DNA of 32,000 nucleotides from Thermofilum adornatum (GTDB taxonomy: Archaea > Thermoproteota > Thermoprotei > Thermofilales > Thermofilaceae), in assembly GCF_000446015.1 (NCBI RefSeq), contig NC_022093.1, positions 1,710,001 through 1,742,000 on the forward strand, written 5' to 3'. The notes below the pieces were generated by a model. The model was not told the origin of the DNA. It ran no database searches and worked only from the letters and a program-made list of their open reading frames with translations. Shown here in pieces: positions 3,587 through 32,000 of this stretch. Position 1 is the stretch's first letter, and every line of letters starts with the position of its first letter. The translations under genes and the position numbers were made by a program.

Positions 3587-3740
3587 AGAACAAGCTCGCC
3601 TTTTTTGGATACTTTCGGTTTTATCTTGGTGGAAGCTTAATAAGGACTATAATGTGGGGTAATATTGTGGAAAAAGAGGCTACCAAGAGAATGGGTTATC
3701 CTTTAAGAGATAAGGTGGATTTTTCCCGAGGGAACCAGGC

Positions 3741-5342: not shown

Positions 5343-5345
5343 GAC

Positions 5346-9939: not shown

Positions 9940-10135
9940 AGCCAGAAACTAGAATGGTTCTTAGAGATTCCTCATGCGCCACAACATCCAACCGTAATGA
10001 TTGAATATAACTCTAGAGGTAAACTATGTTTTACTATTAACTAATCCAGCTACTTCACAAACTTTCCTACGATTTGAAACAGTGCTTGGAAAGGGGAAGC
10101 TAACCTATTAGCTATTTAGCCTGTCAAGGCCACGT

Positions 10136-14683: not shown

Positions 14684-14689
14684 CTGGCT

Positions 14690-15655: not shown

Positions 15656-15656
15656 C

Positions 15657-16949: not shown

Positions 16950-17169
16950 GTGTTCTCCCCCTTGGGGGATGTAGTACAGCGATATGTAGGCTATATATGT
17001 CTTTGCCAAATATCTTCGCAGAAAATTGCAAAACAAAGGTAAGAATTTTGAAAAAAGTGTCAAGAACATCTTTGAATATGTGTAAAACTTACCATTAGAA
17101 TATGCATATCAGTAATGCTTATAAAAGAGCCCCTAAAATTGCCGATAAATATATTTAGCGAAACTTTAT

Positions 17170-18132
17170 TTAATACTCTCTTGATTTGGTCAATACGTTT
17201 AGAGGTTTTTCTCCTCTAAGGTATCTTGCTATGTTTTCTGCAGCGAACCTGAGGCATTTCTCCCTGGATTTCTTTGTCCATCCTGCCTTGTGGGGCGTAG
17301 CTATAACATTTGGGAGCCTGTGGACACCTATACTTGAGGGGTAGCCTTGGCTTGGCGGATAGGTCCACCATACGTCTATGCCTGCCCCGGCTATCCAGCC
17401 TTGTGTCAGGGCTTTGTATAATGCGTGTTCGTCTATAACGGGGCCCCGGCCTATGTTTATGATATAGGCTGTTTTCTTCATTGACTTTAGTTCTTCTTCT
17501 CCTATGAGGCCTCTCGTCTCTCGTGTCAGCGGGAGAGCTATTACTGCATAGTCTGCCTGGGAGAGAGCCTCTTTGAGCTTGTCTTGTCCGTAGCATTCGT
17601 CGCAGTACTCGTCTCTTTCTGGGTTCTTCTTGACAGCTACTACTTTCATGTTGAATGCCTTTGCTATCCTCGCTATCTCTCTGCCGATATTGCCGTATCC
17701 AACGATGGTTAGTGTTGAGCCTTCAAGGTCTAGTAAGAAGTTTTCCTCTGTGTAGCTTCTCCACTTGCCGTTCTTTACCTCGTAATCCTGCTCTACAATT
17801 TTCTTGGCAAGTGAAAGCATGAGTGCGAAGGCGTGCTCTGCTACTGCCCTGGCGTTACAGCCCTTGGCCGTGGCAACCATGACGTTTCTATCGAACAGGG
17901 CCTCTAGGTCTAAGTTGTCTGCGCCAGCCGCGGGAACCTGGACAAACTTAAGTTTTCCCGCTCTCTTGATTGCCTCCCTTGGCAAGGTAACAGCCATAGC
18001 TATGGACGAGTCTTCTAGGCCAGAAAAGTCGGCACCGCTCCAGTAGAGAATCTCGATTTTTCCGCCTAGAACGTCCTCAATTATCCTCTTTTCCCACTCG
18101 GCAAGCCTCAAATAAACAAACAACCTCTCCAC
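17170..18132 (-). CDS. D-isomer-specific 2-hydroxyacid dehydrogenase (NAD-binding)
   Basis: Rossmann motif VGYGNIGREIARIA, then NIGRGPVIDEHAL, DVWWTYP and TPHKAGWT (catalytic His region). GTG start. Confidence 0.88.
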   Translation of the reverse strand: MERLFVYLRLAEWEKRIIEDVLGGKIEILYWSGADFSGLEDSSIAMAVTLPREAIKRAGKLKFVQVPAAGADNLDLEALFDRNVMVATAKGCNARAVAEHAFALMLSLAKKIVEQDYEVKNGKWRSYTEENFLLDLEGSTLTIVGYGNIGREIARIAKAFNMKVVAVKKNPERDEYCDECYGQDKLKEALSQADYAVIALPLTRETRGLIGEEELKSMKKTAYIINIGRGPVIDEHALYKALTQGWIAGAGIDVWWTYPPSQGYPSSIGVHRLPNVIATPHKAGWTKKSREKCLRFAAENIARYLRGEKPLNVLTKSREY

Positions 18133-18310: not shown

Positions 18311-19840
18311 TTATTTTTTGGGCTTTCTCCTAAGCAGTAAAACTGTAGCTAACACTATCACTAATACAATTATAGCCAGGACAATGTACAGAGTAAAGTC
18401 TTGTGCAGGCTGTTGTGGCTGAGCGGGTTTCGTGGGCTGTGTTGGCTGTTGTTGTGCTGGTTGTTGTGGCGGATACAGGTTGACCTCTACTGGGGGTGTA
18501 ACGCTTTTAACTGTGTCTATGTATTGTGGAGCAAACATTCCAATTTTGAGGAGGGGCTTGTAGAGGTCTGGTAGATCCTGCTCGGTATAGTATTTGGCAA
18601 GAGAGGTTGTATCCCACACTATTTGTGCAATATACATGTCCTGTACTGTTCTGTGGTCTTCTTTTCTTATCTTTATGTCTCCCTTCACAGATGTAAATGT
18701 GAGGCCTTCAAGCGCGTTGATTAGTTTTTCAGAGTCTGTTGAGCCGCCGGTCTTCTTTAATGCTAGTCCAAGCGCATGGCCAGCCACGAATCCCTCGCCG
18801 ACAAAAAGGTCTGGCAAGGGGAAGGCTATGAGGACTGAGCCCATCGTTGGAAGTGCTTTTTTCTTGTAGAGTTCAACATACTTTGAGACAAGCCAGTCGT
18901 TGACTGGGTTATTCTGTGGTAGGTTCCAAGCATACTTCATCATTCCCTTGTAGTTGGGCAGGTATAGGCCCATTTTTAATAGGTTCAGGGTTGCTAGGTC
19001 TGGTATGCCTGAGGTGACTTTCATCTTTTGGTAAACTCCTGAAGCGTTTATCTGTTGGTAGAGTGTTAGAGCTGTTGCTCCACTCCATACGGGAATGAAT
19101 ACCTCTGCCTTTGAGGCCAGGAGAGACTGGATGTAGGGCGTAAAGTCAGTGGTTGTTACGGGGGCATATATTGCGGCGACAACGCTTCCTCCTTTCTGTT
19201 GAATGATTGTTGACCAGGCATCGACAGTAGAGCGTCCCCAGGAGTTGCTCGGTGCTAGGAATGCAACTGTTTTGCCGAGGGTGGTGGCAAATGTTCCACC
19301 TGCAATTGCGTCGTGCCAAGTTGTACTTGAAATCTGGAAAACGTACCTGTTTAGGTAGGTCTTGGTTATCTCGTGGTCAGCGGCAGGGACAACCAAGAAT
19401 ACGACCTTGTATTTTTGGGCTATCTGTGTGAGGGCGATAGCTGACGGGCTGTCTGAACAGCCTACGAGTATCTCGGCTCCCTTGTTTTGTATCAAGTCCT
19501 CTGCTGCTTTTGTAGCTGTGGCTGGGTCTGGGATTTGCTGGCCGGCTGGAACATTGGTTGCCGCTATGATGTGTATTGTTTTGCCTTGCCAGTTAAGTTT
19601 CCATTCTAGGTTTGGCGTAACTGTCTCGAAGCTCGGTATCTCTAGCGCGTACATGAGTCCAAGAATGAAGCCGTTAATTGACATGTCGCCATAGTAGCTT
19701 AGTGCACCTGTCCTGTCGGTAACGATGCCTATAACGATTTCATTGGGGTTCTGGGCCTTGACGTTTATTGGTACAAAGGCTAGTGCTATTAGTGCTATCA
19801 AGAGGAGGGAGAGACTTTTAGCTCGTTCTTTTGTTGTCAT
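18311..19840 (-). CDS. LIV-type substrate-binding protein with signal peptide and C-terminal Q/P linker plus TM anchor
   Basis: N-terminal signal-like LSLLLIALIALAFVPINVKAQNP and a type-I PBP-sized body. The C-terminus is PPQQPAQQQPTQPTKPAQPQQPAQDF, then TLYIVLAIIVLVIVLATVLLL, then RRKPKK. Confidence 0.8.
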   Translation of the reverse strand: MTTKERAKSLSLLLIALIALAFVPINVKAQNPNEIVIGIVTDRTGALSYYGDMSINGFILGLMYALEIPSFETVTPNLEWKLNWQGKTIHIIAATNVPAGQQIPDPATATKAAEDLIQNKGAEILVGCSDSPSAIALTQIAQKYKVVFLVVPAADHEITKTYLNRYVFQISSTTWHDAIAGGTFATTLGKTVAFLAPSNSWGRSTVDAWSTIIQQKGGSVVAAIYAPVTTTDFTPYIQSLLASKAEVFIPVWSGATALTLYQQINASGVYQKMKVTSGIPDLATLNLLKMGLYLPNYKGMMKYAWNLPQNNPVNDWLVSKYVELYKKKALPTMGSVLIAFPLPDLFVGEGFVAGHALGLALKKTGGSTDSEKLINALEGLTFTSVKGDIKIRKEDHRTVQDMYIAQIVWDTTSLAKYYTEQDLPDLYKPLLKIGMFAPQYIDTVKSVTPPVEVNLYPPQQPAQQQPTQPTKPAQPQQPAQDFTLYIVLAIIVLVIVLATVLLLRRKPKK

Positions 19841-19877
19841 ACGGTTGTAATAATAATTTCTTATTCAATAAAAAAAG

Positions 19878-19884
19878 GGTTAAC
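19878..19884. promoter_or_regulatory. GGTTAAC half-site abutting the TATA-like tract of the binding-protein gene promoter
   Basis: The minus strand reads GTTAACC-CTTTTTTTATTGAATAAG.. with ATG at 19840, 38 nt from the motif end. Confidence 0.5.
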
Positions 19885-19910
19885 TACTATTTCTGGGCTC
19901 TATCTGCCTT

Positions 19911-20927
19911 TTATATCCAGCGGAAGATTGCGCTTGCCATGACGAAGCCTACTCCAGAAGTGATGAACTGTATGTAGTCTCCCTTCTTAATCTTGCCCTG
20001 TGTTAGAGTATCGTGTAGAGCCATGAATACGCAGGCAGATCCAGTGTATCCATATTTCTCCATGATGGTTGGGGCCTTCTCGATTGGCTGTCCAAGTAGC
20101 CTCATCAGCTGGTGGATCATCTCTCTGTTTACCTGTGTGACGAAGTAGTAGCTTATGTCGTTGGCTGTTAAATTTGCCTTTTTCTGTACCTCTTGTGCGA
20201 GTCCTGGCCAGTGGCGAAGGTTTATGTCGGGTGGATACCTTTTAAGGTACCTCAGCTTGTGCCATCCCTCCTTTACGACGTTCTCGTTTACTGGTCTTGC
20301 ACCCCCTATGTATATGCCCCAGTAGTCTGTATAACTACCATCCGCAATTATTTTTCCAGTAATGTAGCCAGGTTCACTTGATGGGCCAAGAATGACGGCT
20401 CCAGCTCCGTCAGAGAAAATGGAGGCAGTCACGTCTTGTGGGTCAATAAATTTGGTCATCGTGTAAGGTGAAACTACCAAGACATAGTTGACGTCTTCGT
20501 TGAGCATGATGTTCTGTGCCGCAAGCATGAGGGCTATTGTGTTGTCTGCACAGGCCGCGTTTATGTCGAAGCCTCCCGTTTTTAGTTTTGCGCCTAGCTT
20601 CTGGTGAACTGCACAAACTGTTGGTGGGGTCTGGAAGTCTGGGGTATCTGTTGCGAATATGATAAGGTCGATATCGTCTATAGTGAGGTTGGCGTTTTGA
20701 AGAGCCATTCTAGCGGCTTCTGCGGCTAGATCCGAGGGGGCCTGGTCTGGCGCAGAGACGTATCGGTGTTTGATGCCTATGCGGTTTTCTAGTGCATTTC
20801 TCCATGCATCGGGGAGCTTGAGACCAAAGAACTTTTCATAGTCATCGTTAGTTACTAGTGTTTTTCCAAGGGCTATGCCCGTGCTCACTATCCTGGCATA
20901 TTTTTTTATTTCAGGCTTCGTAGCCAT
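19911..20927 (-). CDS. KAS III (FabH)-like thiolase-fold enzyme with atypical catalytic residues
   Basis: FabH-like blocks ATDTPDFQTPPTVCAVHQKLG, FDINAACADNTIAL (active-site Cys retained), SDGAGAVILG and the C-terminal GVGFVMASAIFRW. The start is ATG 20927, or TTG 20930 as in the track. Confidence 0.75.
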   Translation of the reverse strand: MATKPEIKKYARIVSTGIALGKTLVTNDDYEKFFGLKLPDAWRNALENRIGIKHRYVSAPDQAPSDLAAEAARMALQNANLTIDDIDLIIFATDTPDFQTPPTVCAVHQKLGAKLKTGGFDINAACADNTIALMLAAQNIMLNEDVNYVLVVSPYTMTKFIDPQDVTASIFSDGAGAVILGPSSEPGYITGKIIADGSYTDYWGIYIGGARPVNENVVKEGWHKLRYLKRYPPDINLRHWPGLAQEVQKKANLTANDISYYFVTQVNREMIHQLMRLLGQPIEKAPTIMEKYGYTGSACVFMALHDTLTQGKIKKGDYIQFITSGVGFVMASAIFRWI

Positions 20928-20963
20928 CAAAATACTCTGGGAAAAATCCTATAAAATAAAAAC

Positions 20964-20970
20964 GGTTAAC
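20964..20970. promoter_or_regulatory. GGTTAAC half-site abutting the TATA-like tract of the KAS III-like gene promoter
   Basis: The minus strand reads GTTAACC-GTTTTTATTTTATAGG.. with ATG at 20927, 37 nt from the motif end. Confidence 0.5.
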
Positions 20971-20983
20971 TATTTCCCGAAAC

Positions 20984-22213
20984 CTAAAAGATGCTTTCGA
21001 TCTTTCTCTTGAGCTTCCAGCCTTTAAGCAACCATGTACCGTATATACCGTAAGGTAATGCCAGGACAACTATTATGTAGAGGAGTCCGAGAATAAAGCT
21101 GGGGAAGAGTTGCAGTTGTTGGAGTGACAGGAAGCCTAGTGATATGAGTGCTGGAGTTATCGTTGAAAGGTAGTCTCTAAGGAAGCCAGCAAGGATACCG
21201 CCAATAGCTGGTCCAACGAATGTGCCGAGACCACCCAGTATAGCACCAGTCATGGCAATGAAGGTCTTATCGGTTGCGAAGACGTCTGGCTGGATTGTAG
21301 GTATGCAGGCGACGTACACGCTTCCGGCTACCCCTGCAAAGACGCCTGAAATAAAGAAAGCTATTAACTGGTGGAGAAAAACGTTGTAGCCTATAACAGA
21401 TGCCCTTACCGGATTCTCCCTTATTGCTATAAATGTGCTTCCCAGAGGGGATGTGATGATTCTCTTAATCAACAGATATGATATGTAGAGGCTAAGGAGA
21501 GAGACTAGGTACACGTTAAGAGGATATACAAATCGCAGGATTCTTACATAAGGAAGACCTGAACCTACTTCATGGAGGAATGTTGCCGAGGAGCTAAAGA
21601 TTACGTACCCACTATAACCTAAGAAGATAAAGAGCAATAAGACAATCAGTGTTTTGAGAACTTTCTGGCGTTTCCGCTTTGTGCTAATGATGTCTATCAT
21701 CCCGGTCACAAGTGATAGAGCAAGAAATATTGTGAAGAGGGCGAGGTAGAGGTACAGCCCTTCAAGTGAAGCCATCTCAGGTATCGTACCTACCGTCACA
21801 GCAACAGTGGTTTGGGCAGAGTACTCAATAGTAGCTCTAATGGCTTCCGAAATAGCAAGCGTTAAGATACCATAGTACAGTCCCCTAACACGGTAGCCGG
21901 GAAGACCCATGCCGACATAAACAGCTCCCGAAATAAGTGCGGCGGGAATAAGAGATAGAAGGAACGGGACACCCTGCTTGAGAAGCACCGCCGTAATAAA
22001 GGCAGCAACACCGAATGGAACTGCGTGCCCGAAGCTTGGGATTCCCGCGAAACCCAAAACTATGTTGTAGCTTAGTGCAAGTAGAGCCCATACAAATGTC
22101 AGGGGAATGCCTGTAGCCAGTGACCTGTCTAGCCATGGAATGGCAAGGAGTATTGTTAAGGACAAGTATCCAAGAAACCTATTAGGCAACAAGTAGTTCC
22201 TTAGTTTCTCCAT
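20984..22213 (-). CDS. livM: LIV-type ABC transporter permease, LivM-like (long form)
   Basis: A polytopic membrane protein of 409 aa in the LivM position of operon 2. The conserved C-terminal half reads SPLGSTFIAIRENPVRASVIGYN... Confidence 0.85.
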   Translation of the reverse strand: MEKLRNYLLPNRFLGYLSLTILLAIPWLDRSLATGIPLTFVWALLALSYNIVLGFAGIPSFGHAVPFGVAAFITAVLLKQGVPFLLSLIPAALISGAVYVGMGLPGYRVRGLYYGILTLAISEAIRATIEYSAQTTVAVTVGTIPEMASLEGLYLYLALFTIFLALSLVTGMIDIISTKRKRQKVLKTLIVLLLFIFLGYSGYVIFSSSATFLHEVGSGLPYVRILRFVYPLNVYLVSLLSLYISYLLIKRIITSPLGSTFIAIRENPVRASVIGYNVFLHQLIAFFISGVFAGVAGSVYVACIPTIQPDVFATDKTFIAMTGAILGGLGTFVGPAIGGILAGFLRDYLSTITPALISLGFLSLQQLQLFPSFILGLLYIIVVLALPYGIYGTWLLKGWKLKRKIESIF

Positions 22214-22217
22214 TTTC

Positions 22218-23090
22218 TCACCTCTTGAATAATCCTTCTGGTTTAACCACTAGGACAACTATCATGACTATGAGATCTATCGCAAAGCCCAGTTGGGGTA
22301 TAAAGTAGGCTACAAGCCTGTCGACAAATCCTATCAGTAGACTCGCATAGAAGGCTCCCGAATAACTTTTCATGCCTCCTACCACGGGGATAGCGAATGC
22401 TAGAAGTGAAAAGTGGACAGGGAGCTCTATGGTTGCATGCGTCAGTGGAGCAACTAGTGCGCCACCCAGTAGTGCCAGGGCGACGCCAAATGTAAATGCA
22501 GACGTGAAGAGCATCGAGATATCTACACCGAAGACTGTAGCGAGCTCTCGGTTCTCTGTCCCCGCCCTAAGCTTTATACCAATCATGGTTTTTGAAAGAA
22601 GTGTACTCATGGTGCCGAATAGGACAAATCCAATCGCTATAAGAACAAACTTATAGATCCTTATCCTGACATCTGCTAGCTGTATATATCCTGACAACAA
22701 GAAGTTTTGAGTCTCCGGAAATACGAGCCCTGTTGGCCATATTAGTTGCATAAAGGTATACAATAGAGTCATTAGTCCCATGGTAAGTAGTAATTGTGCT
22801 AATGGATTCCCGTATACCGGCCGTATTATTGCTCTCTCGGTTAGAAGACCAAGGACTATCCCTATAAGAAAAGTTAACAATAGGCTCAACAGGAAGTTAT
22901 TCGTCATGTAATAAAACGTCACAAAGAGATATGCTCCTAGTCCAAAAAAGGCGCCCTGTGCTAGGTTAAAGACATCCATTAAGCCAAAAATAATCACAAG
23001 TCCTATGGCTGCAAGGTAGATCATTGATGAATAAGTCAACCCGTCTATAACTGCGCTTAGAATCAATTCAGGTGAAACCATATCCACCAC
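22218..23090 (-). CDS. livH: LIV-type ABC transporter permease, LivH-like
   Basis: A polytopic membrane protein of 290 aa with the FNLAQGAFFGLGAY block. It directly abuts the livF-like gene. Confidence 0.85.
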   Translation of the reverse strand: MVDMVSPELILSAVIDGLTYSSMIYLAAIGLVIIFGLMDVFNLAQGAFFGLGAYLFVTFYYMTNNFLLSLLLTFLIGIVLGLLTERAIIRPVYGNPLAQLLLTMGLMTLLYTFMQLIWPTGLVFPETQNFLLSGYIQLADVRIRIYKFVLIAIGFVLFGTMSTLLSKTMIGIKLRAGTENRELATVFGVDISMLFTSAFTFGVALALLGGALVAPLTHATIELPVHFSLLAFAIPVVGGMKSYSGAFYASLLIGFVDRLVAYFIPQLGFAIDLIVMIVVLVVKPEGLFKR

Positions 23091-23852
23091 CTATAAGCTT
23101 ACACCCAGGATTCTCCTTATTACATGATTGTTTTCTTCTATTTTTTCCGAGGGAAAACCTGTCACCACAACACCTTTATCCATCAGGTAAATGTAATCTG
23201 TTATTTCGCGGGCGTAAGCAAAGTTCTGTTCAATCAATAGTATTGTCTTCTTATTTTCAAGCATGTAGTGCCTCAGCTGCCTGTAGAAGTTTTTAACATA
23301 AGCTGGGCTTAGACCCTCAGATGGCTCATCTAGTATGAGAAGATCATGCTCCCTTACCAGTCCACATGCAAGTGCAAGCATTCTTTGCTGACCGCCGCTA
23401 AGTTCTCCTGCTAGGAGGCCAGAGAACCGTTTAAGCTCTGGGAAAAGATTCATTACCATTTCAAGCTTGTCGTCGAATTTTTCCTTTGGGCCATTATAGG
23501 CTAGCTTAAGGTTCTCAATGACGGTAAGGTTTGCAAATACATTTTTCTCTGCTGGGACAAAACTTATTCCCCTCTTGACTATGCTATGCGTTGGGAAATT
23601 AGTGATGTTCTCTCCTTTGAAAAACACTTCTCCCCTAGCTGCCTTATATATTCCCATTATTGTTTTTAGAGTTGTTGTTTTTCCCACGCCATTTCTACCT
23701 AGAATGGCCGTGAGCTTGTATTCTTCCGCTTCGAAGTTTACTCCTTGAAGTATATGGAAGCCGCCTATATATGCATGAAGATCCTTTACTTTCAGAATTG
23801 GAGACGCCACATCATTCACCCAGGTAGATTTTCTGAACCTCCCTATTCTCAA
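23091..23852 (-). CDS. livF: LIV-type ABC transporter ATP-binding protein, LivF-like
   Basis: Walker A GRNGVGKTT, signature LSGGQQRML, Walker B LILDEPSEGLSP. The start is uncertain: ATG 23852 gives a 41-nt overlap with livG, while in-frame GTGs at 23819 or 23810 give a short or no overlap. Confidence 0.88.
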   Translation of the reverse strand: MRIGRFRKSTWVNDVASPILKVKDLHAYIGGFHILQGVNFEAEEYKLTAILGRNGVGKTTTLKTIMGIYKAARGEVFFKGENITNFPTHSIVKRGISFVPAEKNVFANLTVIENLKLAYNGPKEKFDDKLEMVMNLFPELKRFSGLLAGELSGGQQRMLALACGLVREHDLLILDEPSEGLSPAYVKNFYRQLRHYMLENKKTILLIEQNFAYAREITDYIYLMDKGVVVTGFPSEKIEENNHVIRRILGVSL

Positions 23853-24564
23853 CTATCTCTTTGGGAGACCCTTCCGCGAGAATACTTCCCTGATTCATTA
23901 CGCTGACTTTGTCTGCTACTTCGAGAACAACATCTATTTTGTGCTCGATCACTACAACTGTTTTCTTCATTTCGTCTCTCAGCTTTTTAATGAGACGTAC
24001 AATTGGTGCTACCTCCTCTAGAGATACGCCGGCCGTGGGCTCATCTAATGCTATGAGCTTTGGGTTTCCAGCAAGGGCAATAGCGATTTCTAGTTTCCGT
24101 TTGTCGCCTGGGGTGAGGCTACTTGCCAAAATGTTTGTCTTGCCGTAGAGGCCAGTTATGGAGGCAATCCGCATGGCTTCCCAGACAACATCTTTGTAAT
24201 GGCTTGTTGGATGAATGAAGTCCCATCTCACGTTTTTCCATTTTGCTTGGACAGCAAGCCTTATGTTTTCGAGAACAGTAAGGTTTGGGAAAATCGAATA
24301 TATTTGGAAAGACCTTGTTAGACCCAGGGAGCTAATGTAGTGAGGGGGTTTACCAGTTATATCTCTGTCCTCAAAATACACTTTACCACTTGTAGGTTTG
24401 AGGACTCCAGTAATCAAGTTAAATAGCGTTGTTTTCCCAGCACCGTTGGGACCTATTATAGCATGAACCGTGCCCTGCGCCACCTTCAGGTTAACATTGC
24501 TGACAGCTACGAGTCCACCGAAGCTCTTTGTGAGATTTTCTGTGCGTAGAATTATGCCTGACAT
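23812..24564 (-). CDS. livG: LIV-type ABC transporter ATP-binding protein, LivG-like
   Basis: TKSFGGLVAV, Walker A GPNGAGKTT, Walker B LIALDEPTAGV and the C-terminal QKIYLGE. Confidence 0.9.
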   Translation of the reverse strand: MSGIILRTENLTKSFGGLVAVSNVNLKVAQGTVHAIIGPNGAGKTTLFNLITGVLKPTSGKVYFEDRDITGKPPHYISSLGLTRSFQIYSIFPNLTVLENIRLAVQAKWKNVRWDFIHPTSHYKDVVWEAMRIASITGLYGKTNILASSLTPGDKRKLEIAIALAGNPKLIALDEPTAGVSLEEVAPIVRLIKKLRDEMKKTVVVIEHKIDVVLEVADKVSVMNQGSILAEGSPKEIVENREVQKIYLGE

Positions 24565-24565
24565 G

Positions 24566-25345
24566 TTAGATGCCCCTGAAAAATTCTAGCAATAATTGGT
24601 TGTATTCTTCGGGTCTTTCCCTGTGGGGCATGTGTCCTACGCCTTTCATTATGTGCGCCTTTGAGGTAGGCACCATGGCGTGCATTTCTTCGACGACCTC
24701 TGGTGGGGATATGTAGTCTAGCTCTCCAGAAATGAAGAGAACAGGGTTCCTAAGTGATCTGATTATGTCTCTGTAGCTTTTTTCTGTCGCAGCTTCAGCG
24801 CTCTGTATGTAGACACGTTTATCAGTTCGTGAGATTATCTCATAGATTTCTCGTTTTAATTCGGTAGATGCGTATGGCGACACAGCGAACTCAGCTACTT
24901 GGCTGGCTATTTCATGCATAGACATGTTTTCAAGAACTTCTGTCATTGCTGGTGGGTATTCAGGTGCAATGGCTTCGAGGACAATCTTCTCAAATCTTTG
25001 TAGATACAAGCGGTAAAGCTCTAGCAGGACTAGGCCGCCCATTGAGTAGCCTACCATGAGCGCTTTCTCTATCTTTTCGGCTTCGAGGACGCTTTCTACG
25101 TCTCTAGCAAAATCCTCCATTGATATCCTTTTTGGGGGAATCTGGCTTTCGCCGTGCCCGCGAAGGTCTAGTGCTAATACCCTGTACCCCCTAGCTGGGA
25201 AGAACTCTAACTGGGGTTTCCATGTAAGATGGCTTTCGCCCAAGCCGTGTACGAAGATTATTGGTGTTCCATTTCCTTCAGCAACATAGTGTATCTTTAT
25301 ACCGTCTTTTGATTTTGCATACCTGTGCTCTAATCCCTGCGACAT
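24566..25345 (-). CDS. alpha/beta-fold hydrolase
   Basis: HGLGES oxyanion region, nucleophile elbow GYSMGG, then a late Asp (GELDYI) and His (GVGHMP). 1-nt gap to livG. Confidence 0.85.
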   Translation of the reverse strand: MSQGLEHRYAKSKDGIKIHYVAEGNGTPIIFVHGLGESHLTWKPQLEFFPARGYRVLALDLRGHGESQIPPKRISMEDFARDVESVLEAEKIEKALMVGYSMGGLVLLELYRLYLQRFEKIVLEAIAPEYPPAMTEVLENMSMHEIASQVAEFAVSPYASTELKREIYEIISRTDKRVYIQSAEAATEKSYRDIIRSLRNPVLFISGELDYISPPEVVEEMHAMVPTSKAHIMKGVGHMPHRERPEEYNQLLLEFFRGI

Positions 25346-25347
25346 TT

Positions 25348-26145
25348 TTATTTCACCTCTCCCTTAAGAAAATTCGACACCAGTACATTAATTTCGCCCG
25401 GTTTTTCCCAAATAGAGACATGCCCACTTTCAACTTCAGCATATTTTCCATTGGGAAGCTCCTCAACTATCAACTTGGAGTATCTAGGCGGGAAGAATCT
25501 GTCATGAGTGCTGGCAACAACAAGAGTTGGCATTGTTAGTTTGGAGAGCTTTCCCCTCAGATCGAGCCTAAGAAAAGCTTTAATCATCTCTTCGAATGCT
25601 ACCATGTCTACAAGCTCGAAGTTAGGTGCCAAAGAAGAAATAAAGGAGAAACTGTTATTGATGAACTCGTCTGAGAATATGTCCGGAATCATTACTTGCC
25701 ACAGGAATCTACCTGACTTAAGCCGTGCCGCCAAAATCCACCTGTCGGCACGCAGTCTCAAGGCCTTGTCTACGGTGTGCGACGAATTTAGAATTACGAG
25801 TTTTTCGACTTGCTCGGAGAAGGCTAGCGCAGTAGCCAATGCTACTTTTCCGCCATAAGAGATGCCTGCAAGCGTAAAAGTGTTAATGCCCAAGTAATCT
25901 AACAGTTCCTTCAAGTCAGAAACATGTCTATCAATACTATAACCTGTCCTCGGCTTATCACTTTGTCCCTGACCACGCATATCATGTAGAACTACCTTAT
26001 AGCCTAGGTTCCTCAGATATTCTGCTTGAAGCCTCCATCCTACAGTATTCATCGTTATGCCATTGAGTAGCACTACCGTCTTTTCCCCTTCACCTTCGAC
26101 CTCGTAATAGATCTTTATACCGTCCGTTGTAGTGAAATACGCCAT
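25348..26145 (-). CDS. alpha/beta-fold hydrolase (distant tandem paralogue)
   Basis: Nucleophile elbow GISYGG, Asp region STHDRF, His region ESGHVS. It shares the N-terminal DGIKI(H/Y)Y block with its neighbour. Confidence 0.85.
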   Translation of the reverse strand: MAYFTTTDGIKIYYEVEGEGEKTVVLLNGITMNTVGWRLQAEYLRNLGYKVVLHDMRGQGQSDKPRTGYSIDRHVSDLKELLDYLGINTFTLAGISYGGKVALATALAFSEQVEKLVILNSSHTVDKALRLRADRWILAARLKSGRFLWQVMIPDIFSDEFINNSFSFISSLAPNFELVDMVAFEEMIKAFLRLDLRGKLSKLTMPTLVVASTHDRFFPPRYSKLIVEELPNGKYAEVESGHVSIWEKPGEINVLVSNFLKGEVK

Positions 26146-26150
26146 GGATC

Positions 26151-27722
26151 CTACACCTCTAACTTGTCTTCAGGTTTTCCATAAAGGATTTTAAGAGGCT
26201 GGCGAGCCACCTTCCCAGTCTCCGTGTAGACAAGTTGGGGAACAACTTCTACATACTTTGGTATTTTGTATTTCGCGAGCTTGTCTTTCAAGAAATCTAT
26301 GACTTCTTCTTTCGTTATCTTTTCTCCCTCCTTAAGTACAATCAATGCCTTTGGAACCTCCCCCCACTTGGGGTCAGGGACTCCTATAACCACTGCATCC
26401 TTAATCTTTGGATGCATAATCAAAAGCCTCTCAATTTCTTCTGGATACACGCTCTCTTCACCACTCCTAATGATGTTCTTAATTCTCCCAGCTATCCAGA
26501 AATAGCCTTCCTCATCTACCCTAGCAACGTCTCCCGTAGCCAGCCATCCATCCTTTATAATAGACTTCATCTCTTCCTCGTTTTTCAGGTATCCTGAAAA
26601 CACGCTTGGACCCCTTAGGTACAGCTCGCCCTCAACACCTCTGGGAGCCTCACTTCCATCTGGAAGAACAACCCTGGCCTCTATCAATAGGTTCGGTTTC
26701 CCAATCGACCCCATTTTCCTCTTAGCGTCCCATGGATCGAGAGCAAAAATACCTGGACCCATCTCGGTCATCCCAAAACCTTGTTTCTGGACAACACCCT
26801 TCTCAAATATTTTCTCGATGATGTCTGGCGTTAACGCTCCCCCGCCGCTTGTAAACCACCTAACGGATGAAAAGTCTGCGTCCTTGAAACGGGGCGAAGC
26901 AAGCAACATCCTAAGTTGCGTCGGAACCAGGAAGAGAAATGTTGGTCTCTCCTCTTCTACGAGGTCAATAAACCTATCAACATTCCATCTTCGCATTAGA
27001 ATACTTGTCCCTCCAAACATTAATAGAGGGATTAGATATGTGAAGGCACCAATGTGGAAGAGAGGTAACGTGTTGATTGTGACGTCGCCAGGTATAACCA
27101 AGTCCCTAACAGTGTTCAAGGCGTTCCAGAGAATCATCCTGTGACTTACTATTGTAAATTTTGGCTTTCCAGTTGTTCCACCAGTTTGTAGTATTAGGGC
27201 GGGGTCTTCGAGGCAACACGCCGTCGAGACATCATTGGAAGAGTATTTCTCATAATTAAACTCGTTTGGACAGTCATAGCACACTTTCTTCGTCTCTATG
27301 TTAGAGACGGTTTCTGAAAATTCTTTTTCATATAGGAGAACTTTTGGATTGACTTTATCAACAAACTCTTGAATTTCACGTGAAGTGTACCTCGTGTTTA
27401 TAGGAGCTAGGACACAGCCAATCTTGAAACATGCAAGAAGCGTGGCAACAAACTCTATGCGGCTCCACGAAAGAATAGCTACATAATCTCCCTTGCTTAT
27501 TCCGAAATTTTCCCGAAGAAAATTAGCAATCTTGTTGGACATCTCGTTTAGCTGTGCAAAGGACACCGTACGTAAGGGTATCGTTAGGTCGTCCTTGAGT
27601 GCTATCCAATTACCACTTATATCTGCTCTACGAGCTATCCAGTTGTTGACCCATTTTCCACACGTATAGATTCTCTCCAGAGACATATAATGCATGTTAA
27701 TAGGTGAAATCGTGTTATACAT
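26151..27722 (-). CDS. AMP-forming acyl-CoA synthetase/ligase (ANL superfamily)
   Basis: AMP-binding motifs TGGTTGKPK, GFGMTE, WLATGDV and GRIKNIIRSGEESVYPEEIE. The start is ambiguous between Met1, Met10 and Met13 (see findings). Confidence 0.9.
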   Translation of the reverse strand: MYNTISPINMHYMSLERIYTCGKWVNNWIARRADISGNWIALKDDLTIPLRTVSFAQLNEMSNKIANFLRENFGISKGDYVAILSWSRIEFVATLLACFKIGCVLAPINTRYTSREIQEFVDKVNPKVLLYEKEFSETVSNIETKKVCYDCPNEFNYEKYSSNDVSTACCLEDPALILQTGGTTGKPKFTIVSHRMILWNALNTVRDLVIPGDVTINTLPLFHIGAFTYLIPLLMFGGTSILMRRWNVDRFIDLVEEERPTFLFLVPTQLRMLLASPRFKDADFSSVRWFTSGGGALTPDIIEKIFEKGVVQKQGFGMTEMGPGIFALDPWDAKRKMGSIGKPNLLIEARVVLPDGSEAPRGVEGELYLRGPSVFSGYLKNEEEMKSIIKDGWLATGDVARVDEEGYFWIAGRIKNIIRSGEESVYPEEIERLLIMHPKIKDAVVIGVPDPKWGEVPKALIVLKEGEKITKEEVIDFLKDKLAKYKIPKYVEVVPQLVYTETGKVARQPLKILYGKPEDKLEV

Positions 27723-27726
27723 TTTA

Positions 27727-27743
27727 GGTTAACATTGTTAACC
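27727..27743. promoter_or_regulatory. perfect 17-bp palindromic operator candidate GGTTAACATTGTTAACC
   Basis: 7-3-7 inverted repeat in the divergent spacer between the acyl-CoA synthetase operon and the HTH_10 regulator gene. A near-identical copy lies at 30853..30868. Confidence 0.65.
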
Positions 27744-27880
27744 TTTGACATAATATTAATGACCGGGGTGCCATTCTTATCGTTGCTACAAGGATATTTC
27801 CTTCTCAACGATTAAAAGGTATCTCTTTTTCTATAGTTTTTACGACAGTAGGCTACATTATAAAAACACACTACAGAAAA

Positions 27881-27888
27881 TTTAAATA
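27881..27888 (+). promoter_or_regulatory. TATA-box candidate for the regulator gene
   Basis: TTTAAATA lies 29 nt upstream of ATG 27917. Confidence 0.45.
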
Positions 27889-27916
27889 GTTGTTTTCGTA
27901 ATATTTTGCATGGATA

Positions 27917-28651
27917 ATGATGTACATTGGAGTGTTCGACATTGAGCAATATGATTGCCCCGTTGTTAAATTGACCGAGAAAAGAGAAGGCGTTACAACA
28001 ACAGTTCTATCAGTAAATGTATCTGAACTTTCAAGGGGAGTAGAGCAGATCTTTTTAACAATTAAGAGTTCCGAGCAGGACAAGCTTAAGGACATTCTAG
28101 AAGTCGCGCAAACAATTCCCGAAGTAAAGAACTGTAAAGTACTTGGGAAGTCTGACGATGCATGGAGAATACTCATGAACATTAAAAAGACACATACAAT
28201 GGAGGCTAGTGTAAATCTTGGTGCAATGTTTGTTTCTCCGTGGATTGCGAGAAGCGGCGTTGAGAGGTGGACCCTAGGCTTCATAAGTAAGAAACAGTTC
28301 TACGATTTTCTGTCTTTGATCAGGGAAAGAGACCATGTAAAGAAATACTACTTGACAGAGGTAAAGGAGGAGGACTTTGTAACTGTTTCTGCAAACTATC
28401 TATCTATACTTAAATTGGTTTCGCAACTGAACAAGCTGACCCCCAATCAGCTGAACATGTTAAAGCTGGCTTTGTCTAAGGGATATTATTCGTGGCCGAA
28501 GGGGGTTGATAGCGTTGAACTATCAAGAATGCTAGGCGTTTCTCGTGTGAGTATAATTAAGTCGCTTAGGAAAGCTGAATACAAGGTGCTAGGTCCCGTT
28601 GTAGAATTTGTGTCAATGGTTAAGAAAGATTGGGAGAAAAACTACACTTAA
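27917..28651 (+). CDS. HTH_10 (bacterio-opsin-activator-type) transcription regulator
   Basis: The C-terminal LTPNQLNMLKLALSKGYYSWPKGVDSVELSRMLGVSRVSIIKSLRKAEYKVL matches the HTH_10 pattern LTxrQrevLxxAyexGYFexPRxxxxxeLAexLGisxstxxehLRrAexKl. The N-terminal ~165 aa are unassigned. Confidence 0.75.
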   Translation: MMYIGVFDIEQYDCPVVKLTEKREGVTTTVLSVNVSELSRGVEQIFLTIKSSEQDKLKDILEVAQTIPEVKNCKVLGKSDDAWRILMNIKKTHTMEASVNLGAMFVSPWIARSGVERWTLGFISKKQFYDFLSLIRERDHVKKYYLTEVKEEDFVTVSANYLSILKLVSQLNKLTPNQLNMLKLALSKGYYSWPKGVDSVELSRMLGVSRVSIIKSLRKAEYKVLGPVVEFVSMVKKDWEKNYT

Positions 28652-28655
28652 ATAA

Positions 28656-28669
28656 TTTTTTTATTTTTT
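28656..28669 (+). terminator. oligo-T tract after the regulator gene
   Basis: T7 (28656-28662) and T6 (28664-28669) begin 5 nt after the TAA stop. Confidence 0.5.
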
Positions 28670-28671
28670 CT

Positions 28672-29646
28672 CTAAGCCAGTGGAGATGCAATAGTGGTTC
28701 CTAGGTCTATGGGTATCACTATTCCTGTGAGTGCCTCGTTTTCCACCACGTGGTATGCCAATTTAGCAATTTCTTCCGGCTCGACGAGTCTCGCTATTGG
28801 AATCCTCCTTAAGTATTCTTGGAGGATCGGTGAAGGCACTGCGAGAGCCATCCTAGTCTTGGCGAATCCTGGAGCTATAGCTACGACTCTGATACCGTAG
28901 GGGGCAAGCTCCTTTGCAAGCGTCTTAGTGAGACCTATGAGTCCCGCCTTAGAAGCCGCATAATTTGCCTGGGCAATGTTTCCAAGCAATCCTACAATTG
29001 ACGAAATATTGATGATTACTCCCCCGCCGTTCCTTTTCATTATTGGGAAAACAGCTTTTGAGCATAGGAAAGCTCCCTTTAGATTCACATTTAATACGCT
29101 GTCCCAGTCTTCGTCCTTCATTCTCTCTAGATAAGTGTCACGTGTTATGCCAGCATTGTTTACCAATACATCGATCCGGCCGGCCAGCCGTAAAGCCTCT
29201 GATATGCCCTTAGAAACACTCTCACTCTTGCTGACGTCCATCTCTACGAAGTATGCCTCTACACCTAGGTTCTTTATAGCTTCGAGAGTTTTTTCTGCTT
29301 CCTGATCTCTCACTATATCCGCAATGACGACGTTGTAACCGTGCCGAGCAAACTCTAGTGATATTGCCGCTCCTATGCCTCTGCTTCCCCCGGTAACAAG
29401 GACGACTTTTCTTGGCTGATCGACACGCGGGATAAATACTGGGATTTTGCCGAAGACTGTCAATTCTTCTGTGAGTTCTCCTTCAGCTCCCTCCTTTACA
29501 AGCCCCATGTATTTTTGAGGTATTCTCGCGATTCTTTTTTCTCCATTTCCATTCTCAACTATGGCGACGATGTACGTAGACTTGTAGGGCTCTACAGGGG
29601 TCAGCAATTCGGTAAATATTCTTACTTTCCACGCCATTCCCTTCAC
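28672..29646 (-). CDS. fusion protein: DUF35-like OB-fold domain + FabG-type short-chain dehydrogenase/reductase (3-oxoacyl reductase-like)
   Basis: The C-terminal 245 aa form a classical SDR: TGGSRGIG, NNAG and the S..YAASK triad. The N-terminal ~78 aa (AWKVRIFTELLTPVEPYKSTYIVAIVENGNGEKRIARIPQ..GELTEELTVFGKIPVFIP) look like the OB-fold half of DUF35/acyl-CoA-associated proteins, without the Zn ribbon. GTGA start/stop overlap with the thiolase gene. Confidence 0.75.
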   Translation of the reverse strand: MKGMAWKVRIFTELLTPVEPYKSTYIVAIVENGNGEKRIARIPQKYMGLVKEGAEGELTEELTVFGKIPVFIPRVDQPRKVVLVTGGSRGIGAAISLEFARHGYNVVIADIVRDQEAEKTLEAIKNLGVEAYFVEMDVSKSESVSKGISEALRLAGRIDVLVNNAGITRDTYLERMKDEDWDSVLNVNLKGAFLCSKAVFPIMKRNGGGVIINISSIVGLLGNIAQANYAASKAGLIGLTKTLAKELAPYGIRVVAIAPGFAKTRMALAVPSPILQEYLRRIPIARLVEPEEIAKLAYHVVENEALTGIVIPIDLGTTIASPLA

Positions 29647-30818
29647 CTCTCAAAAACGATAACTACTGAAGTTGCCCCAGTCCCACCATGATTCTCAACT
29701 AAGCCTCTTTCTGCATCTTTCACTTGCCTGGCCCCGGCCTCACCCCTTAGCTGCCAGTATACCTCTGCGACCATGCCTACACCCGTTGCACCAATGGGGT
29801 GTCCCTTAGCCTTCAACCCACCACTTGGGTTTACTGGCTTAGATCCTGTGAATGCTGTTACCCCGTCCCTAATCAGCTTGTAGCCTTCGCCTCTCTGTGC
29901 AAGCCCAAGCATCTCGTAGAGAATTATCTCAGCGATTGTAAAGGCGTCGTGGACTTCGAAAAGGTCTATCTTTTCTGGGCCATATCCACTCATCTTGTAA
30001 GCTTCTTGGGCGGCTTGCCTGGCCGCCTCGATAGCTGACATGTCTTTTCTTTGGTAGACCCCTGAATAATCATGCTTCATAGCTATGCCGCTGATGTAGA
30101 CGGGTGTATCAGTATACTTTTTAGGCTCCGAGCTCATGAGAAGGGCTACGGCCCCATCGGAGAGTGGCGAGGCATCAAATAGTTTTAGGGGCGGTGATAT
30201 GTATGGAGACTTCAAGACGTCTTCAACTGTGATCTTCTTCTGAAACTGGGCGAGCGGGTTTCTTGTAGCGTTTTCATGGTTCTTTACGGCGACCAAGGCT
30301 AGGTCCTCTTCCTTTGCCCCGTAGCGGTTCATGTATTCTCTAGCTATTAAAGCATAGAGGCTTAGAAATGGAGCCCCCACTTTGTACTCTTCTGGCGCAC
30401 TTGTACGCATCAAGATCTCATTCGACTTTGCAGACGTCCCCACAGTGCTCATTTTTTCAAAGCCAACAATCAGGGCGTTTTTAAAGAAGCCAGCACTGAG
30501 AAGCTTGTGTGCAAGATAAACAGCTGTTGTACCAGCTGCACAGGCATTTTCAACCCTGAAGCCCGTAGCGTTTAGGTTCCCAATGTAGCTTGCTACAAGG
30601 GGGGCTGTATGCAGTAAGCCCCCGAAGGAGTCACTGTAGTTGGAGACTATGATTAGGTCTATTTCCTGCGGAGAAATCCCCTTCTCAACGCTTTTCAGGG
30701 CTCCCTCGACAGCTTCACGTATCATTTCGTGTGTCTCCTTTTGACTCCTGGCCTCATACTTTGTGCTATAGGCTCCTACAACGCCTATTCTACCGTTTTG
30801 GGGCGTTAGTGTCACCAA
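29643..30818 (-). CDS. thiolase-like acetyl/acyl-CoA C-acyltransferase (archaeal SCP-x/DUF35-associated type)
   Basis: Thiolase blocks RVENACAAGTTAVYLA (nucleophilic Cys), GHPIGATGVGM and NHGGTGAT. TTG 30818 or GTG 30815 start. Confidence 0.85.
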   Translation of the reverse strand: MVTLTPQNGRIGVVGAYSTKYEARSQKETHEMIREAVEGALKSVEKGISPQEIDLIIVSNYSDSFGGLLHTAPLVASYIGNLNATGFRVENACAAGTTAVYLAHKLLSAGFFKNALIVGFEKMSTVGTSAKSNEILMRTSAPEEYKVGAPFLSLYALIAREYMNRYGAKEEDLALVAVKNHENATRNPLAQFQKKITVEDVLKSPYISPPLKLFDASPLSDGAVALLMSSEPKKYTDTPVYISGIAMKHDYSGVYQRKDMSAIEAARQAAQEAYKMSGYGPEKIDLFEVHDAFTIAEIILYEMLGLAQRGEGYKLIRDGVTAFTGSKPVNPSGGLKAKGHPIGATGVGMVAEVYWQLRGEAGARQVKDAERGLVENHGGTGATSVVIVFER

Positions 30819-30852
30819 ATAGGAAATTTCAACACTTGCCTAAAAGCGGAGA

Positions 30853-30868
30853 GGTTAACATTGTTACC
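30853..30868. promoter_or_regulatory. second copy of the operator candidate (GGTTAACATTGTTACC)
   Basis: Identical to 27727..27743 except for one missing A in the right arm. It lies 35-38 nt upstream of the thiolase start and is followed on the minus strand by TCTCCGCTTTTAGG. Confidence 0.6.
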
Positions 30869-30881
30869 TAGATAGAAATAG

Positions 30882-30887
30882 AAAAAA
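30882..30887 (-). terminator. T6 tract directly after the secreted-enzyme gene stop
   Basis: The minus strand reads TAA-TTTTTT immediately after the stop at 30888. Confidence 0.45.
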
Positions 30888-31502
30888 TTAGAAGCCCAGG
30901 TCGCTTAGCCAGAGGGTGTATACATCTGAATCAGCCACTATTTCTCCTGGAAGAACGCCGTACCAGTTTTGCGGCAACCAGTAGTACGCGTCGATATCGA
31001 CGCCTGTCGTAGCCTTGTATGCCGCCCAGACAAGCTCAGAGCAGTAATAGGATGGGCCATATACTTGTTTGTAGTATCCGTTATAGTCGTATGTATAGCC
31101 AAGCTTGGAGTACGCCCAGTTGGCGGCACTTAGGGCTTGTGAGTCTGTCACGCCTTTGACCCTCAGAATTATGACAGCACTATAACGGGACATGAATTCG
31201 CTTAGAGTGTTTATTCTTACACCCTCGAATAGTGCCTCTACAACCAGCCAGTCGCCAATTGTTGGATCATATTTGTATAAAATGCCCGCATGGGACCAGT
31301 AGCCCACTATGGTATATTCCTGTCCAGGGTAATGACCAATTACGATGTCGCCTGGTCTAAGCGAGACGTTTGGATAGGGGTGCACGAAGTAGCCGTATGG
31401 GTGATAACTGTCGCTCGAGGAAGCCTGGAGCACAGGCATAGTAAAAGCCAGGAAAAACAGTAGCATGAAAAATGGTGCTGTGAATTGTTTCTTTTTTATC
31501 AT
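30888..31502 (-). CDS. secreted permuted papain-fold (NlpC/P60 superfamily, YiiX/YaeF-like) enzyme
   Basis: N-terminal signal-like FTAPFFMLLFFLAFTMPVLQASS. Block order is GDIVIGH.., then WSHAGILY (His), VVEALFEGV and YDYNGYY, and finally YYCSELVWAAY (Cys). His before Cys is the circular permutation of the YiiX/YaeF family. Confidence 0.6.
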   Translation of the reverse strand: MIKKKQFTAPFFMLLFFLAFTMPVLQASSSDSYHPYGYFVHPYPNVSLRPGDIVIGHYPGQEYTIVGYWSHAGILYKYDPTIGDWLVVEALFEGVRINTLSEFMSRYSAVIILRVKGVTDSQALSAANWAYSKLGYTYDYNGYYKQVYGPSYYCSELVWAAYKATTGVDIDAYYWLPQNWYGVLPGEIVADSDVYTLWLSDLGF

Positions 31503-31546
31503 TTGTCGATCAATATCTAGCCTTTTAAGATAAATAAAAGCATGTT

Positions 31547-31554
31547 GGTTAACC
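31547..31554. promoter_or_regulatory. GGTTAACC (self-complementary) motif in a divergent promoter spacer
   Basis: It lies between TATA-like tracts for the minus-strand gene (start 31502) and the plus-strand gene (start 31601). The right flank TTGGTTAACC resembles ATTGTTAACC of the main palindrome. Confidence 0.45.
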
Positions 31555-31600
31555 TATATTACAAAGCAAATAAAAATGTTATCCCAAATAACTTAAACTG

Positions 31601-32000
31601 ATGAGCAAAGAAAAACCTAAACTAGACAAAAAGCTGTTAGCCGCAGTAATACTTCTCGTCCTCTCAGCCCTGCTAGCCTTATCGGGCTCTTTCACCGCTA
31701 AGACACTACTCTACCAAGGCGTCCAGACAGAAGAAGTCTGGATAACGGGTCTCGACGGAGCCAAACTTAGGGCAGTGATCTATAAGCCTTCTAATGCTCA
31801 AGGGAAGCTACCAGCAGTCATTGTTGTCCACGGGCTAGGTGCCTCATCAGATACAATGAATGCTATTTCCACGGAGCTTGCAAGAAACGGCATCCTAGTT
31901 TTATCACTGAACTATAGGGGACACGACGGTAGCGAGGGCGGGGTAAACTATATCGGCGACCCAATAGCGGCGCCAAACATCTCAAACGACCTCTACGCTT
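31601..32000 (+). CDS. membrane-anchored alpha/beta hydrolase (dienelactone-hydrolase/S9-like), 5' part; runs off the right edge
   Basis: Absent from the ORF track. My translation from ATG 31601 gives MSKEKPKLDKKLLAAVILLVLSALLALSGSF..GLDGAKLRAVIYKPSNAQGKLPAVIVVHGLGASSDTMNAISTELARNGILVLSLNYRGHDGSEG. This is an N-terminal TM helix followed by the HG-oxyanion start of an alpha/beta hydrolase. Confidence 0.6.
   Translation, partial: MSKEKPKLDKKLLAAVILLVLSALLALSGSFTAKTLLYQGVQTEEVWITGLDGAKLRAVIYKPSNAQGKLPAVIVVHGLGASSDTMNAISTELARNGILVLSLNYRGHDGSEGGVNYIGDPIAAPNISNDLYA

Follow-up and report, generated by a model that had tools for sequence, protein, structure and literature searches.

Why is a thiolase gene in Thermofilum adornatum followed, almost without a gap, by a ketoreductase gene whose product carries a conserved N-terminal extension, and could that extension attach the reductase to the thiolase? 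The question arises in a 32,000-nucleotide stretch of contig NC_022093.1 (positions 1,710,001 to 1,742,000; hereafter the window, whose own coordinates are used throughout). There, a thiolase of 391 amino acids (aa) with a TTG start (29643..30818, minus strand) precedes on the same strand a 321-aa protein (28672..29637, from the ATG at 29637) that ends in a short-chain dehydrogenase/reductase (SDR). From profile comparisons and a predicted fold, we take the homology of the extension to the OB domain of DUF35 proteins to be real at the level of the family. The explanation that we consider probable overall is a coupled bicistronic operon for a DUF35-class thiolase and an OB-tagged ketoacyl-CoA reductase, with the oxidative/thiolytic direction somewhat favoured.

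A coupled gene pair and the domain ahead of the reductase

A sequence-only reading of the window had described two open reading frames (ORFs), a thiolase followed by a fusion protein, and both are present on the minus strand. The longest downstream ORF starts from a GTG at 29646 (28672-29646, minus strand, 324 aa), and in it the thiolase TGA and the GTG overlap as GTGA (29646-29643). The overlap noted in that reading is correct for this longest ORF, but as the start it is disfavoured: some 45 full-length homologues have M(V/A)WK as their N terminus, equivalent to the ATG at 29637-29635, 5 nucleotides (nt) past the thiolase TGA. Because the homologue N termini begin there, the ATG at 29637 is probably the true start. 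A Shine–Dalgarno-like GAGGTGA (29643..29649, minus strand), read from the sequence, overlaps the thiolase stop 5 nt upstream of this ATG and is a putative ribosome-binding site. The spacer between the two genes is 4–6 nt in orthologous loci, and judged from these sequences the tight coupling is real with either start codon.

In the downstream ORF, Pfam placed adh_short at residues 80-267 (E = 3e-63), and the stretch ahead of the SDR, given earlier as about 78 residues, is present with a length of ~72–76 aa. Around 50 homologue clusters of 320–327 aa cover 95–100% of the OB::SDR query at 57–98% identity, the names on these full-length homologues being Thermofilum, Infirmifilum or "Sulfolobales archaeon", whereas ordinary SDRs of ~245 aa cover just 73–75% of it. 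When the full OB::SDR protein was searched against genome contigs, only bacterial SDRs without the OB part were returned. Two proteins of 335–336 aa (P0053 and P0070) were considered as further fusions and rejected, being SDRs with internal duplications of SDR segments and without an OB domain; their extra length probably reflects assembly or gene-model artefacts.

The extension itself is an OB-only "mini-DUF35" domain of ~72 aa (29422..29637, minus strand), which profile, PF01796 and AlphaFold2 evidence leads us to propose as a thiolase-docking module. It is conserved across the family, with the consensus MxWxLxxYTELYxPVEPYKSTYAIGIVENExGER..VRID.KYFG.L..G..GEV.EEWTVFG....F.P. A word-indexed homologue search with the 87-aa N terminus alone gave no matches. 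A profile of 27 extensions had its best Protein Data Bank (PDB) match in 6esq_E (E = 0.006), the DUF35 subunit of the Methanothermococcus thermolithotrophicus thiolase/HMG-CoA synthase (HMGCS) complex. With a profile of 38 N-terminal domains the same chain was matched at E = 3.1e-7, followed by 6ok1_B, which is ChsH2(DUF35), at 0.0016 and, weakly, by 7pxp_A, which is BbsA, at 1.6; PDB matches at E ≤ 10 were limited to these three chains, all DUF35 proteins. The alignment to 6esq_E spans residues 52-101 of its 130 aa, corresponding to the OB half. Individually, PF01796 was matched by 13 of the 27 and 15 of the 38 family members, at best with 4.4e-5. Since the single-sequence AlphaFold model was poor (pLDDT 54), an alignment-based model was used instead: from 65 aligned sequences, AlphaFold2 reached pLDDT 89.3 and pTM 0.88 for OB::SDR, and the predicted topology ahead of the Rossmann fold, beta1-beta2-beta3-short helix-beta4-beta5, is that of a five-strand OB.

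The other parts of a DUF35 protein are missing. The first element of the domain is beta1 of the OB fold, and the N-terminal helix is absent; the domain contains no Cys in the window protein and no conserved Cys in the family, and PF12172, the zinc ribbon family, matched none of the 27 or 38 members. No CxxC...CxxC pattern occurs in any frame of 27000-32000, and a search of the same interval for a zinc ribbon encoded on a peptide of its own close to the operon found none. The sequence-only reading had likened the extension to the OB-fold half of DUF35 stripped of its zinc ribbon and had named the absence of that likeness as one ground for refutation; profile search and fold prediction both bear the likeness out.

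The rest of the protein (28675..29409, minus strand) is a classical SDR domain, FabG- or (3R)-hydroxyacyl-CoA dehydrogenase-like by adh_short, motifs and Foldseek. TGGSRGIG, NNAG, S216, Y229 and K233 (S...YxxxK) are invariant in the family, so that a complete FabG-type SDR with its full catalytic and cofactor motifs, as described earlier, does follow the extension. Foldseek aligned the domain with FabGs at TM 0.88–0.92 and 45–47% identity; the NCBIfam FabG equivalog score of 267 lies below the cut-off of 298. The top-scoring PDB sequence match was 2et6, the NAD+-dependent (3R)-hydroxyacyl-CoA dehydrogenase of Candida MFE-2, and 2uvd was also aligned. The Asp that ends beta2 (VVIAD), D110, is near-invariant in the OB::SDR family and aligns with VVVND of MFE-2, whereas NADPH-FabG has NY/TA at this position. 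By the usual SDR rule, an acidic residue at the end of beta2 predicts NAD(H), which is therefore the predicted cofactor here. As archaea, to our knowledge, are without acyl carrier protein (ACP), the substrate must be a CoA ester.

Thiolase adjacency in three architectures

The upstream gene product matched Thiolase_N and Thiolase_C_1 of Pfam. Its best PDB relatives include 7yvy (1e-80), 4yzo, 6esq_A (2e-64), SCP2-thiolases, BbsB, PhlC and Ltp2, the bacterial and archaeal ones all being DUF35-partnered enzymes. In alignment with 6esq_A it keeps the nucleophile Cys (VENACAAG), EVHDAFT with the HDxF motif, and KGHPIGATG, and by these criteria it is a thiolase of SCP2/archaeal ACAT type, of the DUF35-partnered class, with intact catalytic motifs. 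Thiolases of this class have been reported to lack solubility or activity when their DUF35 partner is missing (Saci_1121/1120, bioRxiv 10.1101/2024.07.05.601840; PMC12960953). The lone DUF35-like element near the thiolase gene in the window is the domain carried by the SDR.

How common the fusion is had been left to a survey. An exhaustive hidden Markov model search with the OB profile at E ≤ 0.001 found the OB-only domain to be rare, with just 39 representatives among 1.84 billion protein representatives, distributed over three architectures: OB::SDR (~320 aa), OB::3HCDH (P0130, P0134 and P0140) and standalone proteins (70–92 aa). The second architecture consists of 3HCDH_N plus 3HCDH, a fold unrelated to SDR. 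We inspected the genes around the domain in nine independent contexts, and in all nine a Thiolase_C_1 thiolase lies directly upstream. OB::SDR is represented by the window and the loci that we label L001/2, L003/4, L028 and L029, OB::3HCDH by L005 and L026, and the standalone form by L006/7 and L027; in L029 the thiolase/OB::SDR pair stands alone.

One small domain fused to two nonhomologous enzymes of the same reaction, and always found behind a thiolase, constitutes strong Rosetta-stone evidence, as far as sequence can provide it, that the OB domain links 3-hydroxyacyl-CoA dehydrogenase or ketoreductase to thiolase. The reductase likely docks onto the thiolase via its OB domain, and docking is the best reading because the adjacency of thiolase and OB is conserved even with a different dehydrogenase fold or a standalone OB.

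The same data bear on a simpler view, by which the OB domain is an acyl-CoA- or ligand-binding or oligomerisation appendage of the SDR, and its adjacency to the thiolase reflects a common pathway only. Acyl-CoA binding has been proposed for DUF35 (Krishna et al. 2010, PMC2954200); the short linker and the high pTM of the two-domain monomer suggest a fixed intramolecular arrangement, and the zinc ribbon and N-terminal helix of the known interfaces are missing. We nevertheless find this view quite improbable: standalone OB proteins of 70–90 aa encoded directly behind thiolases cannot be appendages of an SDR, the domain is fused to two unrelated dehydrogenase folds, and all solved DUF35 complex structures show binding to a thiolase-fold protein.

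Docking through the OB domain suggests how the unit might work. The operon of this Thermofilaceae-type archaeon would supply a thiolase that normally needs a DUF35 partner together with a reductase bearing a minimal DUF35 at its N terminus. The OB module would bind the thiolase dimer as DUF35 does in the solved complexes and would keep the SDR beside the thiolase, such that the unstable and thermodynamically awkward 3-ketoacyl-CoA could be passed on directly; it may also hold the thiolase soluble. We infer that the unit would interconvert acyl-CoA plus acetyl-CoA and 3-hydroxyacyl-CoA and that in this genome an imported acid may be converted to a CoA ester, then to 3-ketoacyl-CoA and finally to acetyl-CoA.

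The two other architectures occur in settings of their own. OB::3HCDH proteins (FadB/Hbd-like) lie directly behind thiolases in L005 (2358-4585) and L026 (2525-4747), in clusters with glycosyltransferases, a DegT aminotransferase and methyltransferases, where N-acylation of amino sugars may draw on 3-hydroxybutyryl-CoA from the pair. Standalone OB-only proteins of 78–84 aa immediately follow thiolases in L027 (232-3426) and L006 (1-1047); the former pair adjoins a two-subunit family-I CoA transferase (AtoDA-like), and the latter precedes a hexapeptide-repeat (NeuD/PglD-like) acyltransferase.

A putative operator, neighbouring genes and direction

The thiolase promoter region contains a palindrome, GGTAACAATGTTAACC (30853..30868), 35 nt upstream of the TTG start, which is a putative operator. 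A second copy, GGTTAACAATGTTAACC (27727..27743), precedes the ATG of an acyl-CoA ligase gene by 4 nt, in the divergent intergenic region between the ligase and an HTH_10 gene. Both have the form GGTWACANTGTTAACC, with two GTTAAC half-sites, and they are the only sites in the window that match with at most one mismatch. The equivalent promoters of L003 keep the motif, as GGTTACAGTGTTAACC at the thiolase and GGGTTAACGTTGTTAAC at the ligase; it is unrecognisable in L001, a Sulfolobales metagenome-assembled genome (MAG). The claim of an operator common to the thiolase operon and the importer/ligase cluster is borne out by these sites and by their retention in L003. Between the palindromes, divergent from the ligase operon, the HTH_10 gene (27917..28651, plus strand; Pfam HTH_10 5e-14) encodes a regulator of HVO_2525_N type, which adjoins the pair also in L001, L003/4 and L028 and is presumed to bind the palindrome.

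Under the second operator copy lies a co-conserved gene set (18311..27722, minus strand; Pfam and NCBIfam assignments) consisting of the acyl-CoA ligase, two PcaD-like alpha/beta hydrolases, a Liv-type ABC transporter (two ATPases, two permeases and a substrate-binding protein) and a FabH-like protein. The set recurs in L001, L003/4 and L028 with either a CoA ligase or CoA_transf_3, that is, in Infirmifilum-like contigs and in the Sulfolobales MAG, the latter with a family-III CoA transferase in place of the ligase. The PcaD-like and polyhydroxyalkanoate (PHA)-depolymerase-like matches of the hydrolases were all below cut-off and too weak to name a substrate.

This setting bears on the direction of the pathway. 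The sequence-only reading had proposed the first two steps of an ACP-independent fatty-acid elongation. The pair would then be the condensation-reduction half of a synthase resembling reverse beta-oxidation, like the ketothiolase (KT)/DUF35-ACR system of Sulfolobus acidocaldarius with the scaffold fused to the reductase. Several observations fit: the S. acidocaldarius complex of KT/DUF35 and an SDR reductase does make fatty acids, the SDR domain here is FabG-like, and OB::3HCDH and standalone OB proteins in biosynthetic-looking glycan clusters indicate that the module can serve synthesis. The later steps of elongation, on the other hand, are not represented nearby. In the 32-kb window, neither a MaoC dehydratase nor an enoyl-CoA reductase was found among the ~29/47 scanned ORFs of at least 100 aa (mostly the longest ORF at each position), nor was a MaoC dehydratase or a medium-chain dehydrogenase/reductase (MDR)-type enoyl-CoA reductase found in L001, L003/4, L028 or L029, although such genes may lie elsewhere in the genome. 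The NAD(H)-type Asp also differs from what is expected of the reductase Saci_1104, which is strictly NADPH-dependent (bioRxiv 10.1101/2024.07.05.601840), and the regulation of the pair is tied to that of an importer, a CoA ligase and hydrolases. We therefore consider elongation unlikely. Because of this co-regulation and of the NAD(H)-looking SDR, a role in oxidative/thiolytic substrate utilisation, with import, CoA activation, oxidation and thiolysis, appears from the sequences to be somewhat favoured over fatty-acid elongation; alternatively, the pair may supply 3-hydroxyacyl-CoA in two steps.

The FabH-like member of the gene set raises the prospect of a third partner. This FabH/KAS III-like protein (19911-20930, minus strand) is encoded inside the ABC-transporter operon, matches FabH structures at E = 7e-41 and has orthologues in L001 (4669-5661), L003 (19720-20739) and L028 (4485-5510). 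It keeps the Cys (AACA) and has TQVN for HQAN (His to Thr) and GYTG for GNTS (Asn to Tyr). We also considered it as an HMGCS paralogue and rejected this, as it is far closer to FabH than to HMGCS models. By analogy with PhlA/MucA, it may be a noncatalytic partner, or else an acyltransferase.

With this protein, thiolase and OB::SDR could form a tripartite assembly like HMGCS/ACAT/DUF35 or PhlABC that performs noncanonical acyl transfer or C-acylation and not simple thiolysis or condensation. The gene is kept in the cluster in four lineages, and the four orthologues, 39–88% identical and all co-clustered with the pair, invariably have Cys/Thr/Tyr and not Cys/His/Asn; known DUF35 complexes join a thiolase to a KAS III/HMGCS-like subunit whose catalytic residues are often lost, and PhlA and PhlC are detectable relatives. 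Yet the gene lies ~9 kb away within the transporter operon, L029 has the pair without it, and the thiolase retains its HDxF motif; the zinc ribbon and helix, which are the reported second-enzyme contacts of DUF35, are absent as well. Such an assembly thus strikes us as a decidedly improbable explanation.

A bolder version of docking, which we offer tentatively and hold to be rather unlikely in its entirety, treats the OB domain as a portable minimal "thiolase-docking tag" of ~72 aa. This unannotated DUF35 subfamily would have been attached independently to SDR and 3HCDH and would also occur free, and in Thermofilaceae and some Sulfolobales it may recruit the Cys-only FabH-like protein into a new thiolase-superfamily complex acting on an imported substrate. 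In that case, the pair would be the smallest unit of two enzymes known to channel the thiolase/ketoreductase step.

Several observations weigh against a docked, oxidatively working thiolase–reductase pair. The OB domain is without the N-terminal helix and zinc ribbon that contact the partner in solved complexes, and its binding mode could therefore differ. For the window protein alone, Pfam gave no DUF35 match to residues 1-79 even at E ≤ 1, and all PF01796 matches among the 38 family members fall under the gathering score. Foldseek against the PDB with the full two-domain model matched only FabG/SDR chains. The OB::3HCDH and standalone forms of other lineages have glycosyltransferase, aminotransferase and acetyltransferase genes as neighbours, a setting that points to a biosynthetic role in those lineages. 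Finally, the assignments of cofactor and direction derive from a sequence rule and from genomic context.

The window holds further genes around the pair. Just upstream of the thiolase promoter, 30888-31502 (minus strand) encodes a permuted papain-like amidase of the C92 (YaeF/YiiX) type whose N terminus carries a hydrophobic, signal-like segment, and the position of this gene is kept in the Infirmifilum-like L003/L004. A second Liv-type ABC transporter (12171-18132, minus strand; substrate-binding protein, two permeases and two ATPases) lies beside the first importer and is preceded by a D-2-hydroxyacid dehydrogenase gene (17170-18132), which suggests uptake of 2-hydroxy or 2-oxo acids or of amino acids. 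More distant are a complete archaeal DNA-end-resection operon (2044-9022, plus strand), with NurA (2044-3396), HerA (3741-5342), an Mre11-like phosphoesterase (5346-6515) and Rad50 (6509-9022), and an unusual sensor-like trio (9029-10717, minus strand) made up of two weakly protoglobin-like genes (9385-9939 and 10136-10717) and a Roadblock/LC7 gene (9029-9400).

Comparison with known systems

The natural covalent fusion of a DUF35 element to a reductase gives independent Rosetta-stone support for archaeal thiolase/DUF35/reductase complexes. The OB fold alone may suffice for docking, and a minimal tag of ~70 residues could serve engineered thiolase–reductase channelling in reverse beta-oxidation or in the production of 3-hydroxyacids and PHA precursors. 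As Pfam-based mining misses the OB-only subfamily, counts of archaeal thiolase/DUF35 pairs are underestimates.

The nearest functional parallel is the archaeal fatty-acid synthesis system of S. acidocaldarius, in which the KT Saci_1121 and the DUF35 protein Saci_1120 work with the SDR reductase Saci_1104 and the MaoC protein Saci_1085 (Schmerling et al. 2024, bioRxiv 10.1101/2024.07.05.601840) and in which the KT/DUF35 pair binds Saci_1104, the ketoacyl-CoA reductase (same source). Both systems are crenarchaeal, combine a DUF35-class thiolase with a FabG-like SDR whose substrates are CoA esters, without ACP, and associate through a DUF35 element, as we infer for the present pair. Here, in contrast, DUF35 is reduced to its OB domain and placed covalently on the SDR, without a DUF35 gene besides; neither MaoC nor an enoyl reductase was found nearby, the predicted cofactor is NAD(H), and the context is that of importer, ligase and hydrolases. 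In the M. thermolithotrophicus thiolase/HMGCS/DUF35 complex (6ESQ/6ET9), 6esq_E is the PDB chain most closely related to the OB domain and 6esq_A is closely related to the thiolase, and the complex shares the principle of coupling an unfavourable Claisen condensation to the next enzyme. The partner there is HMGCS and not a reductase, and the DUF35 subunit is a free 130-aa protein with helix and zinc ribbon.

Fusion of DUF35 to the enzyme of an adjacent step is also known from ChsH1-ChsH2(DUF35)-Ltp2 and Shy(DUF35)-Sal (6OK1, 9MYR; PMC12329534, PMC11321319). In these, DUF35 tethers the fused enzyme to a thiolase-fold enzyme with the OB subdomain as the main interface; in Shy-Sal, the OB subdomain and the N-terminal helix form the primary interface to the thiolase-fold partner (PMC12329534). 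Unlike the present protein, ChsH2 and Shy are bacterial, have a MaoC hydratase as fusion partner and a retro-aldolase as thiolase-fold protein, and keep the zinc finger. The SDR, for its part, resembles FabG and MFE-2 (2UVD, 4JRO, 2ET6) in the identity to FabGs and the MFE-2-like cofactor loop given above and differs from them in its additional N-terminal OB domain, its thiolase partner and its CoA ester substrate.

A DUF35-type domain and an SDR-type dehydrogenase on one polypeptide were likewise listed before: fusions of DUF35 to SDR-like Rossmann domains, thiolases, SCP2 and hot-dog dehydratases appear in Krishna et al. 2010 (PMC2954200). They were identified by the presence of the canonical two-domain DUF35 (PF01796 + PF12172), whereas the family described here is Pfam-invisible and ribbon-less and occurs also as standalone proteins of ~75 aa and as 3HCDH fusions. 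None of the papers covered by the literature search linked DUF35 with Thermofilum, and the 2024 preprint (bioRxiv 10.1101/2024.07.05.601840) makes no mention of a fusion. With the KT/DUF35/reductase complex described in 2024 and DUF35–SDR fusions in 2010, the novelty implied by the sequence-only reading is lower: neither the concept nor this class of architecture is new to the literature, and the pair is a compact, fused version of a known archaeal complex. New are the ribbon-less OB-only subfamily under Pfam thresholds, its three architectures and the conserved regulon in Thermofilaceae.

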